Both the position numbers and the translations under genes were made by a program. Shown here piece by piece: positions 57,711-64,000 of a DNA stretch of 64,000 bases. The stretch's first letter is position 1. Each line of letters starts with the position of its first letter. The notes under the pieces were generated by a model. It had not been told where the DNA came from. It ran no database searches and saw nothing but the letters and a program-made list of their open reading frames with translations. Location: the NCBI GenBank assembly GCA_000165345.1, contig CM000433.1, positions 640,001 to 704,000 of the forward strand. Reading direction: 5' to 3'.

Positions 57711-58505
57711 NNNNTNCNANTCNGAANTNNNTNAANNNTTNTNANCNNANTAANNNTCNNTNNAAANTANNNATNCNANTANCNNNNNANNANATTNTAT
57801 CATNNNNNNNNTTNGNNNAATNNAGANNNNNTNNTCNTNNTNTNTNANNNTATTNTNNANANTTGNGANNNNNTNANANTNTNTNANNANAANNTTNNNN
57901 TANGNNNCANNNTNNTTNNNNATNAACNTNCNTTTTTANNNNTNANNTNTTCNTCTTTATGATTNTTAANNTCNNTTNNNATANNCNNNGNTTNNNNAAN
58001 AANTCANNTTTANNNTNNTNANNNNNTTNNNNTTCTNTCNNATTNTNAATANNTATATNAATTANAACGANNTNNNTNANGNANNACNNNTNTATTNAAN
58101 NNTNAATNTTNNNNNTNATTTNNAATAAGNATAAGANNNNANTTTNNATNTNTNTNAANANNTTNTGGNNNTCCNGATTNATTGTNNTANATNNAATNNA
58201 NNNNANTNANTACANNATTNTNATTNTTNTCCAAANNTNATNNNATTANGCNTATCCAATAAAGCAGATGAACAATTNTGATTNTNTTNGNAATTATNAA
58301 TNCAAANCTANCANNTTNATATATAGANNTAANTNNNGTNNANNATNTNACGAGTCTNATAANTTNGANANCTNNANTNNNTTCAATNNTACTTAANANT
58401 NANAAANATTCNNTNNANNNTCAANNTCTNCAATTATACNTTTANNAGTNNTNTNANTNNTNTCNTGTTTAATAATTNCTCTTAGAANGNAGTACCAAGT
58501 CNANN
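57711..58505. other. Randomly N-masked / low-quality sequence block. About half the bases are n in an irregular pattern. It is uninterpretable.
   Basis: Directly visible: nnnntncnantcngaantnnntnaannntt... The block spans the junction between the cullin-like (+) and midasin-like (-) gene ends. The ORF-track entries at 58010..58234 and 58062..58259, and the X-containing tails of the two large ORFs, are artefacts of this block. Confidence 0.95.
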
Positions 58506-61500: not shown

Positions 61501-64000
61501 TCAAGTAGTAAAAGAATTTCAGAAAAAATTTCATTCTTTAATTTCTTCAAAGTTGATTCAATAATATTAATAAAACTATTAATCTCTAATTCAATCTTTT
61601 CTTTCCTTTCATTATATTCAATCTTGAGTTTTGAATTATTATTAATTTCTGAATCATCCAATAAATTATTTAATTCATTAACCTTACTTATTATTGATTC
61701 GACAAATTCTTTATTAACTATTTTAATATCATCATTACTGAAAATTCGGTTATTTATTGCCATAAATTCAATCTTAAAGTTATTCAATTCCTGATTTAAT
61801 CTTAAAATCCGACTTCGAATTGGTCTTAATGATCCCAACATATCTGATGCTTCTATCTGTTGATGACAGTTTACTATATAAAGTTGTTTCTTATATAATG
61901 TAGATAATAATTGGAAAATACTTGTTTTACCACAACCTGTTGATCCTACAAGTATTACTGGCTCATTAAATACAATACAATCATTAACCAATGTTAACAT
62001 TCTTTTGAATGAATCTGTTAAAATATAATCCCCATTTTTATTAATCAAGTCTTTTAAAGCTATCAAATTCTTATCTGAATCATTAAATCCATCCATAGAT
62101 ATATTAATATTCTTTCCAATTTTATTATCATTTTCTCCATTTCCTCTTGTGGTAATAATTTCTTTCTTTCTCTTCTTCTTAAGCCTCTCATCATCTTTAT
62201 CTTCCTCTAAAGTATTTATATGAATAGTACTATAGTTAATAATTTCTTCAATATTCTTAATTTCAAAAGGTTTACATATCTTAAATAAAATCTCTGCTAA
62301 TTGTAATTTTTCATCTCTATCTCTAATTCTCTCTCCAATTACATAAAACCCTTGAATTACCAAATTCTTTTTATCCAACACATTATCTTTACTAGTTATT
62401 AACCTATTTCCCCATCTTAATAAATCTCTCACAGTAACAAAACTAAAATCACCAGAAAACATCTGAGATTTAGATCTGTGCCTCTTTAACTCCATAAATA
62501 CTTTAACCATTAATTCTGAATAAGAAACTGGAATATTTGATCTTTTTGATATTATCACTTCCAATTCTTTACTTGGAATTTCATCAAAGTAAATTTCTAC
62601 AAATCTATTTCTAAAAGCTTGAGAAAGTACTTTTCTTCCACCATAAATACTCCCTGCTGGATTTTGTGTTGCAAATAACATAAAATCTTCATGAGCTTTA
62701 ATAACTTCTCCTGTTTCTGGAATAAAAATCTCTCTATTACTGTCTAAAAGTCTATTTAAAGACTCCAAAACCTCACTAGGAGCAAGATTTAGTTCATCTA
62801 ATACTAACCAATATCCATTTCTTATAGAATTTACCAAAGGACCCTCTACAAACTCTAATTCTCCTTGATTATTTGGTATAAATTTACCAAAATATTCTTC
62901 TGTATCTGTATGTTCATGATTATTAATTCTAACAAATTTATGATTTGTAAGCTCAGATATATATTTGATTAGAGAAGTTTTACCAGTAGATGTTTCTCCT
63001 TCTATTAATATAGGATTTCTTGAACCAGATAAAATTCTTAGTATCTTCATTAAATTCTGTTCAACATATGGAGTTATCACAAATTCATTATTTATTGCAT
63101 TATTTAATTTAAAATTCTTATTATAAGTTCCCATTCTTATCACATAATCTTTTATTAACATATAATTAATAAAATTAATCTTGCCAGATGAAAGTGTTTG
63201 ACCTCTTTCTGAGCCTAATTTTGGAGCTGAAAATAAAACACAATTCATTTCAACATTTTTACTTCTTCCTTTTAAAGAATCTTTTAAATTCATCTTTAAA
63301 ATCCTTCTTGTTAATTTATCTACCTTATTATATGATTCACTTACTAATGGAGTAGCAAAACTCATCATTATTCCAGTATGTATTATTTCAGAGATTTCTT
63401 GCTTTAATATAGCATTTTGTATTATAAAATTTCCATTCTTAAGATCACTATTGTTATTATTATTATCTCCAATATACTCGATAAGTTTTAGTTGATTTTG
63501 ATTTCTCCTCCAATTTGCTTGTAACATTAATATTGTTCGAATATAACTCAAACAACTTGAAAATGTTCTTAGTGAGAAATTTGGAATCCCATGTCCATTT
63601 CCTTCTAATCCTATAGTAATTTCATGTCTATTTCCCATATTTTTAAGTTCCAAGTATATATCAACCAATGTAGTTATATTTATTTGATTTGTAAGTAAAA
63701 CATCTTTAAGATAATTATAAACAACATCTTCCAAATCTTTTCTATCTGTTAATTCATCCACAAAATATTCTGTAAAAAGAGCTCTAACTAATTTAGGTAA
63801 ATCTTTCTTACCACTAGTTGATTTTATTTGTATATTTTGAGAATCATCTCCTTGAATATTATTAATTAATTGTTCTTTTTGCTCAATTGGAACAATAACA
63901 GGATTCATACAAGAAAATAATCTGAATCTTGGATGTATTTTAATACTTTCATTACCTTTTTCTGGTATTGTCAAATAATCTGAATCAATGACTTTATTAT
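58482..64000 (-). CDS. MDN1: Midasin (MDN1/Rea1)-like protein with tandem dynein-type AAA (AAA_5) domains. It is partial: the N-terminus lies beyond the window end, and the 3' end is lost in the N-masked region.
   Basis: At least four consecutive AAA_5 modules with P-loops ILIEGETSTGKTSL, VILVGSTGCGKTS and ILLEGAPGIGKTA. Each is followed by LVLDELNLA / LLLDEINLC / VILDELNLA Walker-B blocks and FMLFATQNP / FRIFATMNP / FRIFATQNP sensor motifs. Reading continues without a stop to position 64000. Tandem AAA_5 repeats in a eukaryote indicate midasin. Confidence 0.7.
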   Translation of the reverse strand, partial: NKVIDSDYLTIPEKGNESIKIHPRFRLFSCMNPVIVPIEQKEQLINNIQGDDSQNIQIKSTSGKKDLPKLVRALFTEYFVDELTDRKDLEDVVYNYLKDVLLTNQINITTLVDIYLELKNMGNRHEITIGLEGNGHGIPNFSLRTFSSCLSYIRTILMLQANWRRNQNQLKLIEYIGDNNNNNSDLKNGNFIIQNAILKQEISEIIHTGIMMSFATPLVSESYNKVDKLTRRILKMNLKDSLKGRSKNVEMNCVLFSAPKLGSERGQTLSSGKINFINYMLIKDYVIRMGTYNKNFKLNNAINNEFVITPYVEQNLMKILRILSGSRNPILIEGETSTGKTSLIKYISELTNHKFVRINNHEHTDTEEYFGKFIPNNQGELEFVEGPLVNSIRNGYWLVLDELNLAPSEVLESLNRLLDSNREIFIPETGEVIKAHEDFMLFATQNPAGSIYGGRKVLSQAFRNRFVEIYFDEIPSKELEVIISKRSNIPVSYSELMVKVFMELKRHRSKSQMFSGDFSFVTVRDLLRWGNRLITSKDNVLDKKNLVIQGFYVIGERIRDRDEKLQLAEILFKICKPFEIKNIEEIINYSTIHINTLEEDKDDERLKKKRKKEIITTRGNGENDNKIGKNINISMDGFNDSDKNLIALKDLINKNGDYILTDSFKRMLTLVNDCIVFNEPVILVGSTGCGKTSIFQLLSTLYKKQLYIVNCHQQIEASDMLGSLRPIRSRILRLNQELNNFKIEFMAINNRIFSNDDIKIVNKEFVESIISKVNELNNLLDDSEINNNSKLKIEYNERKEKIELEINSFINIIESTLKKLKNEIFSEILLLLDNMLSELKLYQNSELKKDQALFEWQDGPIIKAMKTGSFLLLDEINLCDDSVIERLNSLLEDQFIKTESGLSYKSRVIYLTEKGGASSFNNNEDYIIHSHKDFRIFATMNPSGDYGKRELSPALRNRFNEIFVPSLSMYQLKDDIEFLVYKNISKLSEKQVSEMNKKMLSKCIIIFSILYENDIKNDQILQLKNLNRDEEIDDYFKLMTENGIQLIKEDQNYTLMTFGSDSGNSSDVKEYTIRDIISWCQFICNNFQEISNFYTINKEIIIDYIKKGENRPEFLYLKNENFMNNYISMESMILTTLILGELFIHGASMLIIDGLNTHNIEYNEEEKEIGISLQLIYMERLIEIFYIYLIIPNFQENNIIIGKLIKEVLNYRFLNDQGNNWIKVGGGKVLGKEFNEDQFDDFKENKKDGYLLINQNYIELGPFKVKRKEKSWNDSSSCQKKIDLDIEKVMKKFTFDSKTTLRNLSSIIRSMSIMKPILLEGAPGIGKTAIILTLSKLVGVKLHRINMSEQTDFSDLFGCEVPNSGVSRNKDQNQHQDDDYQMRKQDGKLINWIDGILLYAMKNGDWVILDELNLATQQILEGLNSVMDHRRNIYIPEIGQTIICHENFRIFATQNPVKIGSSGRKGLPQSFLNRFVRINVGKLTYEDYLIICNSLFLNDNYGLTQKLIQICIQITKEIEQYSMKFNTLKDSSMWEWNLRDIIRLLRFLQLNLIRNLNLRKEITNEFCQIQIIINSLYTSFETVYLSRLRTKQDYDIINNIIKKGLIQSIEQNQEGSLFKISGIIDNIINSNINNYKNNNIHQSIHLKRILIFEDYLKYYILNGNSSNNNNNNNNNNNNNGIYSIDKHSCGLTNDCKDLDFNTLPIHSKKMIISIIDCILLGENIILTCNHGNYMEEVILLIENISKNYFKNIRVNKVNILPSIDANDLIGGYQQYNQENIMNEILDLISSLRVELELNNYDENIKYKNLLNCVKFKNILNTRNDEFELELKXXLGTXF
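58963..59012. repeat. (ATT)n / (ACT) trinucleotide tract encoding a poly-Asn run inside the midasin-like CDS.
   Basis: gttattattattattattattattattattattattactactattacc, translated as NNNNNNNNNNNNNNNNNG on the minus strand. Confidence 0.85.

Follow-up and report, generated by a model that had tools for sequence, protein, structure and literature searches.

The window, by which we mean the whole 64,000-nt stretch of DNA that was analyzed, carries a cullin-like gene on the plus strand and a midasin (MDN1/Rea1) open reading frame on the minus strand, and the two converge on a block of scattered ambiguous bases. The coordinates of these features, and of the pieces into which the block can be divided, are collected in Table 1.

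Table 1. Features of the window at the meeting point of the cullin-like gene and the midasin reading frame.
Feature	Position	Strand	Description
Intact 5′ part, cullin-like gene	53579..57710	+	codons 1-1377 of a gene of 1830-1832 aa; Pfam Cullin E = 2.4e-21
Ambiguous-base block	57711..58505		321 N in 795 nt
Cullin-derived sub-block	57711..57920	+	score 184 vs. null 20 ± 3
Mixed, error-laden sub-block	57921..58238		weak cullin and weak midasin signal
Midasin AAA6 Walker-B region trace	58239..58300	-	NCSSALLD at codons 58254-58277, in the midasin ORF frame
Second cullin-derived sub-block	58288..58461	+	ends at about cullin codon 1627; score 198 vs. null 19 ± 4
Unassigned block edge	58462..58505		contains the minus-strand TAA (58482-58484) that ends the midasin ORF
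Clean midasin coding sequence	58506..64000	-	no stop up to the window end; equivalent to residues ~1003-2810 of the C. canis midasin
Midasin AAA3 (P-loop GETSTGKT)	62271..63086	-	yeast Mdn1 1054-1318, 306.7 bits
Midasin AAA4 (P-loop GSTGCGKT)	61089..62063	-	yeast Mdn1 1328-1569
Midasin AAA5 (P-loop GAPGIGKT)	59352..60128	-	yeast Mdn1 1717-1950
Midasin AAA6, N-terminal half, cut before Walker B	58485..58892	-	C. canis midasin 2691-2807

The minus-strand frame is open from position 63998, at the window end, down to its TAA stop, with 1838 amino acids visible. The original prediction identified it as a midasin-like gene with AAA_5 modules, and the identification holds: Pfam AAA_5 matches the product in four stretches (E = 1.7e-70), the midasin-specific lid domains AAA_lid_7 (E = 4.5e-25) and AAA_lid_5 (E = 4e-21) are both present by Pfam, and the product matches solved Mdn1/Rea1 chains with E-values of about 1e-247. 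Visible in the frame, and colinear with Mdn1, are the end of AAA2, all of AAA3, AAA4, and AAA5, and the first half of AAA6, while AAA1 and most of AAA2 lie past the window end. The AAA6 half has a degenerate P-loop 'LLGENIILTCNHGN', then 'SIDANDLIGGYQQYN', and the C. canis segment homologous to it maps onto AAA6 of the solved Mdn1. All that is left of the second half of AAA6 is the motif trace NCSSALLD, inside the ambiguous block. The long linker, the D/E-rich region, and the C-terminal MIDAS (VWA, DxSxS) domain are absent within the window, where the frame ends at 58482. The earlier description of the gene as truncated is right as to the truncation but understates its extent, since the AAA ring itself is incomplete.

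A convergent cullin-like gene had also been proposed for the plus strand, and we find the same. Starting at position 53579, the gene has 1377 clean codons before it runs into the block, and the cullin homology domain (Pfam PF00888) is matched at residues 1199-1377, which cover profile positions 444-590 of 620, with the E-value given in Table 1. In the reference cullin orthologue, the C-terminal winged-helix neddylation domain (PF10557) has a sub-threshold match at residues 1732-1787 (E = 0.0028, 18.1 bits vs. a cutoff of 36.9). That region of the orthologue is absent from the window.

A base count places every N of the window inside the block, which sits exactly between the last reference-identical base (57710) and the first clean midasin base (58506). 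The Ns are arranged in about 190 short runs of 1 to 8 bases each, and their density per 100 nt falls from 53-54 at the left of the block to 22-34 at its right. This masking had been called irregular, and abnormal for a genuine assembly gap. We agree on both counts: the Ns are ambiguous base calls, and not a gap of set size.

The block was aligned to the reference cullin with N treated as a wildcard, and using random segments of the window as the null. As a whole, it aligns to the cullin continuation with a score of 456-472, where random segments score 23-46. On its left side, 83 of the 83 visible bases in 57711-57889 match the cullin reference with one 1-nt insertion, and the earliest mismatches in that sub-block come only within its final ~30 nt. 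The mixed sub-block next to it scores 42 against the cullin (null 22 ± 3.5), with numerous mismatches and indels; within it, the minus strand at 58118-58177 reads sGxP..........LxLIxN, a weak match to midasin 'SGVPEYIKRDKRFRLFLINN' (score 33 vs. a null of 23-27). The Walker-B region trace has a partial-codon DP score of 55 against midasin, for a null of 25-29. Its motif NCSSALLD is exact in the midasins of C. canis, C. ryanae, and C. andersoni ('NCSSALLDRLNSLLED'), its position is that of AAA6 in the S. pombe and S. cerevisiae Mdn1, and it lies 87 codons after 'ILNT' in the window vs. 90 codons in the C. canis midasin. The unmasked 25-nt core of this trace (58253-58277) mismatches the cullin reference. 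Further right, in the second cullin-derived sub-block, 110 of the 110 aligned visible bases agree with the cullin reference, with 5 gap columns, and this same sequence carries visible stops when read in the midasin frame. The remaining edge of the block has no significant cullin alignment (17 vs. null 13 ± 3) and Ns persist in it; the TAA that it contains is fully visible, yet stands in low-confidence sequence. Relative to the reference, the visible bases of the block show indels of 1-3 nt and miscalls.

These alignments indicate that cullin and midasin sequence are interleaved in one and the same interval, where the midasin part consists of one strong 8-residue motif and one weak colinear match. 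As there is midasin sequence to the left of the second cullin stretch, at least three switches of source would have to occur within about 400 nt. And because the two loci are interleaved, a single real breakpoint cannot yield the pattern.

The window is C. parvum DNA. To the left of the block, its sequence from 42298 to 57710 is 100% identical to the C. parvum IOWA-ATCC sequence CP044418.1 (long-read) and to CP029784.1, and the identity to the references stops exactly at the first N. We compared eight reference loci, three from NCBI chromosome-level assemblies and five from Logan short-read assemblies. In all eight, a cullin of 1830-1832 aa is followed 889 nt downstream, on the same strand, by VPS13, and the midasin is never there. 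Window sequence 58506-64000 has no match to the next ~3.4 kb of any of these loci. The C. parvum assemblies compared with the window are mutually colinear at the cullin locus. The idea that the midasin piece could be an inverted copy of the cullin's neighbor was rejected; the neighboring 5401-aa gene is VPS13, as seen from its VPS13_N and PDB VPS13 matches.

Midasins from other Cryptosporidium species tell us what a complete gene looks like. The C. canis midasin has 6122 aa and the C. andersoni midasin 6853 aa, and both include a D/E-rich region as well as a VWA/MIDAS domain. The best library match of the window fragment is the orthologous C. canis MDN1, colinear across residues 1682-2807; in the 10 kb to each side of the C. 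canis midasin, neither a cullin nor a VPS13 gene is called. C. tyzzeri, which is closely related to C. parvum (95-97% nucleotide identity; preprint 10.1101/2021.01.29.428682), also encodes the MIDAS domain, in a fragment at a palindromic scaffold end, next to a gap of 827 Ns. That fragment is the sole match of the search with the MIDAS domain, which did not recover AAA6 DNA. A search for homologous proteins with the 1838-aa fragment returned proteins of at most 3200 aa and at most 44% identity, a 300-aa variable piece of the midasin returned none, and scanning for the midasin among metagenome proteins and by exact 39-mer gave zero matches. Because the C. canis, C. ryanae, and C. andersoni orthologues and the C. 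tyzzeri fragment keep such parts, we attribute the absence of the linker, D/E-rich region, and MIDAS domain from the window to a false join, and not to the gene itself.

Our main reading, to which we give a probability of about 0.93, is that the block is an artifact of assembly or consensus that falsely joins the cullin to the midasin, and that neither the short midasin nor the short cullin is biology. Sequence comparison shows a loss of colinearity between the window and the references, sequences of both genes interleaved in the block, and midasins of full length elsewhere in the genus. The original prediction had raised a contig join or mis-assembly of unrelated loci as one possible cause, and this is the one that the loss of colinearity with eight reference loci at the first N, together with the interleaved sequences, bears out.

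As for how the join could have arisen, the window would come from an assembly of Cryptosporidium parvum made in the Sanger era, most likely the IOWA II reference of 2004. Poor-quality ends of reads that belong to two unrelated loci may have been fused into one consensus, for example as a phrap-type mosaic of reads or from mixed traces, merging the 3′ part of the cullin-like gene with the middle of the midasin gene of the opposite strand. Ns would have been written where the reads conflicted or their quality was low, and elsewhere the consensus would alternate between its cullin and midasin sources. The cullin would then appear truncated at about codon 1627 of 1830, and the midasin would appear truncated inside AAA6, roughly 3300 residues short of its real end. 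The false join probably marks one end of a scaffold piece that was placed in the wrong orientation. Such a mosaic of sources with added Ns fits better than a pure consensus of two overlapped contigs, in which an N stands for disagreement and a base for agreement. As the sole rule the latter is rejected, ruled out both by the unmasked 25-nt midasin stretch that mismatches the cullin and by the stops in the midasin frame within the 100% cullin stretch at 58288-58461.

Similar boundaries are on record. The 2004 IOWA II assembly has 18,558 ambiguous bases where long-read assemblies have 0, and it has inversions on chromosomes 2, 4, and 5 whose edges are ambiguous bases or gaps, and which are absent in all long-read assemblies (PMC8744675, PMC10312629, PMC4407392). 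These inversions were refuted by PCR and ONT reads (PMC8744675). The available part of the preprint's supplementary files gives no inversion boundary coordinates.

Could the isolate that was sequenced instead carry a real inversion or translocation whose breakpoints fall within the cullin and midasin genes, in a region that was simply sequenced poorly? We find this very improbable. It is true that the window places the two loci side by side. But the order of cullin (57711-57920), midasin (58239-58300), and again cullin (58288-58461) is impossible from one breakpoint, and the rearrangement would wreck two single-copy genes, of which midasin is essential in yeast. It is also at odds with the mutual colinearity of the C. 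parvum assemblies compared, and with the rejection of the IOWA II inversions by PCR and long reads (PMC8744675).

There is likewise very little chance that the block reflects deliberate masking or synthetic splicing during preparation of the data set, concealing a join of unrelated pieces. The Ns do start and end abruptly, but visible bases with 1-3 nt indels, miscalls, and block-wise switches of source are what low-quality reads produce, and not a positional mask laid over a clean splice; moreover, a published assembly of C. parvum has ~18,500 such ambiguous bases at exactly such boundaries. We find it hardly credible that the 2004 DNA came from a mixed population including a sub-clone truly inverted with cullin and midasin breakpoints, in which case the signals in the block would be true heterogeneity and not consensus error. 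And we give practically no credence to a genuine short midasin paralogue ending after AAA5 and half of AAA6, without linker and MIDAS domain (the original prediction had allowed for a radically shortened protein): a fully visible TAA does close the frame, but the stop falls inside AAA6 and amid Ns, the same frame carries the AAA6 Walker-B-region motif 69 codons farther on, no functional AAA ring of five and a half modules is known to us, congeneric midasins have 6122-6853 aa with a MIDAS domain also in C. tyzzeri, and the best match is the orthologous, colinear C. canis MDN1.

The main value of a false join between the cullin and midasin genes is as a warning, and it brings no new biology. An annotation or comparative analysis of the window sequence would yield three false results: a midasin cut short, with neither linker nor MIDAS domain, a cullin that stops before its C-terminal domain, and a spurious cullin-midasin synteny. 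In a pathogen for which drug targets are few, midasin is a candidate essential factor of ribosome biogenesis, and a wrong gene model could misdirect target work. More generally, the scattered-N blocks of Sanger-era assemblies can hold interleaved sequence of two loci, a pattern that can serve as a signature of mis-joins.

How does the window compare with what is known? With midasin/Rea1/MDN1, the ribosome-biogenesis AAA+ ATPase (structures 6OR5, 6HYP, 6I26, and 5JCS), the frame has in common the AAA2 lid, AAA3 to AAA5, half of AAA6, and the midasin-specific lids, all of which align colinearly to the MDN1 proteins of yeast and C. canis. It differs in being without the N-terminal ~1000 residues, which lie past the window end, and without the second half of AAA6, the linker, the D/E-rich region, and the MIDAS domain, which would have been lost at the false join. 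With the scaffolds of cullin-RING ubiquitin ligases, the plus-strand gene shares its Pfam Cullin match; the full protein, however, is unusually long (1830 aa) with a big uncharacterized N-terminal region, and in the window midasin sequence replaces the last ~200 residues, including the region of the neddylation domain.

A third comparison is with the mis-assembled inversion boundaries of IOWA II, treated by Guo et al. 2015 (PMC4407392), by Baptista et al. 2022 (PMC8744675), and in the CpBGF T2T paper (PMC10312629). The organism is the same, the clean side of the window being 100% identical to IOWA-ATCC. The boundary likewise consists of scattered ambiguous bases, exactly where colinearity is lost, and the arrangement in the window is likewise contradicted by all the long-read or independent assemblies examined (8 loci). 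The published accounts do not describe a cullin/midasin join at the level of genes. The block is a known type of assembly artifact; the interleaving of two loci within it is described here, and not in the IOWA II papers.

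The window loses colinearity with every reference locus at a single base. We found the reference loci by exact product, using the 588-aa gene (49328-51094) and the 161-aa gene (52298-52783). Both products lie on ~1.09-Mb chromosomes in three NCBI Cryptosporidium assemblies, one of them C. parvum IOWA-ATCC CP044418.1, as well as on many Logan short-read contigs. CP044418.1 and CP029784.1 have 100% identity with window 42298-57710, the remaining loci have 99.94-99.995% identity with window 39328-57710, and every match stops exactly at 57710, the base preceding the first N. When window 58506-64000 is compared with the next ~3.4 kb of each reference locus on both strands, there is no match. 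The cullin gene has 1830-1832 aa in 8/8 reference loci, and its end would correspond to window position 59071; 889 nt further downstream, on the same strand, is a gene of 5401-5405 aa, which is VPS13 and not midasin (Pfam VPS13_N; PDB VPS13 matches, E 3e-18). Around the C. canis midasin, the 10 kb on each side contain neither a called cullin nor a called VPS13. Its neighbours are a 4583-aa EF-hand protein, a 393-aa protein, a tRNA-intron endonuclease, a TPR protein and a thymidylate kinase, and in C. tyzzeri, too, the TPR-to-thymidylate-kinase block lies next to the midasin C-terminus. Together, these gene orders imply that the window brings together two loci which no other assembly examined places side by side.

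Features of the window and of the N-containing block, with alignment scores against the reference cullin continuation (N as wildcard; null as mean ± SD)
Feature	Location	Strand	Counterpart or score	Null	Remark
Cullin-like ORF	starts 53579	+	Pfam Cullin, E 2.4e-21, residues 1199-1377		1377 clean codons up to the block
Midasin ORF	63998 (window end) down to 58482-58484	-			open frame, fully visible TAA
AAA2 lid	ORF residues 62-159	-	yeast Mdn1 883-977		colinear match
AAA3	ORF residues 305-576	-	yeast Mdn1 1054-1318		colinear match
AAA4	ORF residues 646-970	-	yeast Mdn1 1328-1569		colinear match
AAA5	ORF residues 1291-1549	-	yeast Mdn1 1717-1950		colinear match
Sub-block	57711-57920		cullin 184	20 ± 3	83/83 visible bases match to 57889; one 1-nt insertion
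Sub-block	57921-58238		cullin 42	22 ± 3.5	numerous mismatches and indels
Sub-block	58288-58461		cullin 198	19 ± 4	110/110 visible bases match; five gap columns
Sub-block	58462-58520		cullin 17	13 ± 3	non-significant
Clean flank	58521-58700		cullin 23	20 ± 3	without similarity

The window is AT-rich (~28% GC), and its ORFs are long and without introns. Separately, 8001-10000 has a GC fraction of 0.375 vs 0.23-0.31 in the remainder. All Ns of the 64 kb, 321 in number, are confined to 57711-58505, in about 190 runs of 1-8 bases each; their density per 100 nt falls from 53-54 on the left to 22-34 on the right, and both edges of the block are abrupt. The observations in the original prediction, namely irregular masking here, a minus-strand midasin-like gene whose frame ends inside the masked block, and a cullin-like gene on the opposite strand, are confirmed in every particular.

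The midasin ORF has 1838 visible residues. Pfam matches AAA_5 in four stretches (E 1.7e-70) together with the midasin-specific lids AAA_lid_5 and AAA_lid_7, and solved Mdn1/Rea1 chains match at E about 1e-247. Among 1.84 billion representative proteins searched exhaustively, the best match is the C. canis midasin MDN1 (6122 aa, 54% identity), followed by those of C. ryanae (partial, 4904 aa) and C. andersoni (6853 aa). The final 1200 ORF residues are colinear with C. canis MDN1 1682-2807, and the final ~135 with 2691-2807. The Mdn1 counterpart of this last C. canis segment lies in AAA6 (1940-2109 in S. pombe, 2189-2284 in S. cerevisiae), and therefore the window ORF ends mid-AAA6, before the Walker-B region. 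The AAA ring predicted from the window is incomplete; ~3300 residues are absent (linker, D/E-rich region and MIDAS domain), and ~1000 N-terminal residues lie past the window end.

Three side observations concern these proteins. The AAA6 P-loop is degenerate, without GxxGxGKT, in four Cryptosporidium midasins (window, C. canis, C. ryanae and C. andersoni; LLGENIILTCNHGNYMEEV at window 58760-58892 on the minus strand, LLGENLILTCSQGERMQEV in C. canis), which suggests that in this genus AAA6 lacks the usual nucleotide binding. At 58962-59010, an uninterrupted (ATT)n/(AAT)n repeat encodes ~13 consecutive asparagines between AAA5 and AAA6, opposite a 13-residue gap in the C. canis orthologue. Finally, a word-indexed protein database returned nothing longer than ~3200 aa and no Cryptosporidium midasin, whereas the exhaustive representative library contained orthologues of 4900-6850 aa; the former appears to lack very long proteins.

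What is the block made of? Aligned as a whole to the reference cullin continuation, it scores 456-472 vs 23-46 for random window segments, and by the sub-block scores the cullin sequence goes as far as 58461, near codon 1627 of the 1830. A plus-strand stop at 58394-58396 is not genuine; it is a frameshift artefact of a 1-nt insertion. Between two cullin stretches, the 25 nt at 58253-58277 carry no N and mismatch cullin. On the minus strand they read AAT TGT TCA TCT GCT TTA TTG GAT (NCSSALLD), in the midasin ORF frame, 69 codons past the TAA and 87 codons after 'ILNT' vs 90 in C. canis, and three Cryptosporidium midasins share this identical peptide as their AAA6 motif NCSSALLDRLNSLLED. Dynamic programming with partially masked codons scores the midasin alignment at 55 vs 25-29 for shuffled controls; a weaker colinear match at 58118-58177 ('sGxP..........LxLIxN', similar to SGVPEYIKRDKRFRLFLINN) scores 33 vs 23-27. 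The conserved 'GDWLVI' region is not seen directly upstream of NCSSALLD, where there is cullin sequence instead. Both loci are therefore colinear with one ~800-nt interval, along which the written sequence changes source between cullin and midasin at least three times.

One DNA molecule with one breakpoint cannot give, from left to right, the order cullin, midasin, cullin. This interleaving, the colinearity lost at 57710 and the eight reference loci with VPS13 bear out the suggestion of a mis-assembly. The block resembles a consensus of low-quality reads from two loci aligned on each other, with Ns where reads conflicted or were poor; it carries small indels and miscalls and switches source from one sub-block to the next, and its 795 nt approximate one Sanger read. 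Either a mixed-template finishing read or read tails combined in a phrap-style mosaic may have produced it.

A real rearrangement in the sequenced isolate is very improbable: besides the interleaving, it would destroy two single-copy genes, the eight reference loci are mutually colinear, and published PCR and long-read tests contradict it. Equally hard to credit is deliberate masking or splicing, raised in the original prediction as hidden sequence, since it leaves the indels, miscalls and source switches unexplained. A radically shortened midasin has almost nothing left to recommend it, as the TAA sits in N-containing sequence, the AAA6 motif continues in frame past it, the genus has full-length orthologues, and C. 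tyzzeri, which is closely related to C. parvum at 95-97% nucleotide identity, has the MIDAS domain (Baptista preprint, 10.1101/2021.01.29.428682). The midasin-like gene and the cullin-like gene are both ordinary orthologues, and the apparent truncation is non-biological.

Other records at these loci have their own irregularities. The end of a C. tyzzeri UGA55 scaffold (PYHZ01000005.1, last ~5.4 kb; L009 9164-12150 region) carries a perfect 1080-nt palindrome (arms 9991-11070 and 11071-12150, zero spacer) directly after an 827-N gap; it doubles the MIDAS-domain end of midasin, and one arm is annotated as CTYZ_00003578 (315 aa). The palindrome resembles an artefact of fold-back or of scaffolding, which would have created CTYZ_00003578 as a spurious separate gene. 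Gene models for the carboxylesterase-like gene (49328-52051) differ among assemblies: two NCBI assemblies and Logan give separate products of 588 aa and 168 aa plus small ORFs of 44 aa and 86 aa, and the IOWA-ATCC annotation gives one 848-aa product. VPS13, downstream of cullin in the reference loci (L006 1-2824 vs L007 1-2824), is a single 5401-5405-aa protein in two assemblies and is split in the IOWA-ATCC record into a 389-aa VPS13_N protein and one of 2691 aa or longer.

The artefact is of a kind already documented in C. parvum. The 2004 IOWA II assembly had 18,558 ambiguous bases and long-read assemblies have none (PMC8744675, PMC10312629), and the revised orientation of its chromosome 2, 4 and 5 inversions is backed by PCR on two other isolates and by ONT reads (PMC8744675). 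We infer that the window join is an IOWA II boundary, and that it is an inversion; the mis-join itself is independent of the IOWA II assignment and of the word 'inversion'.
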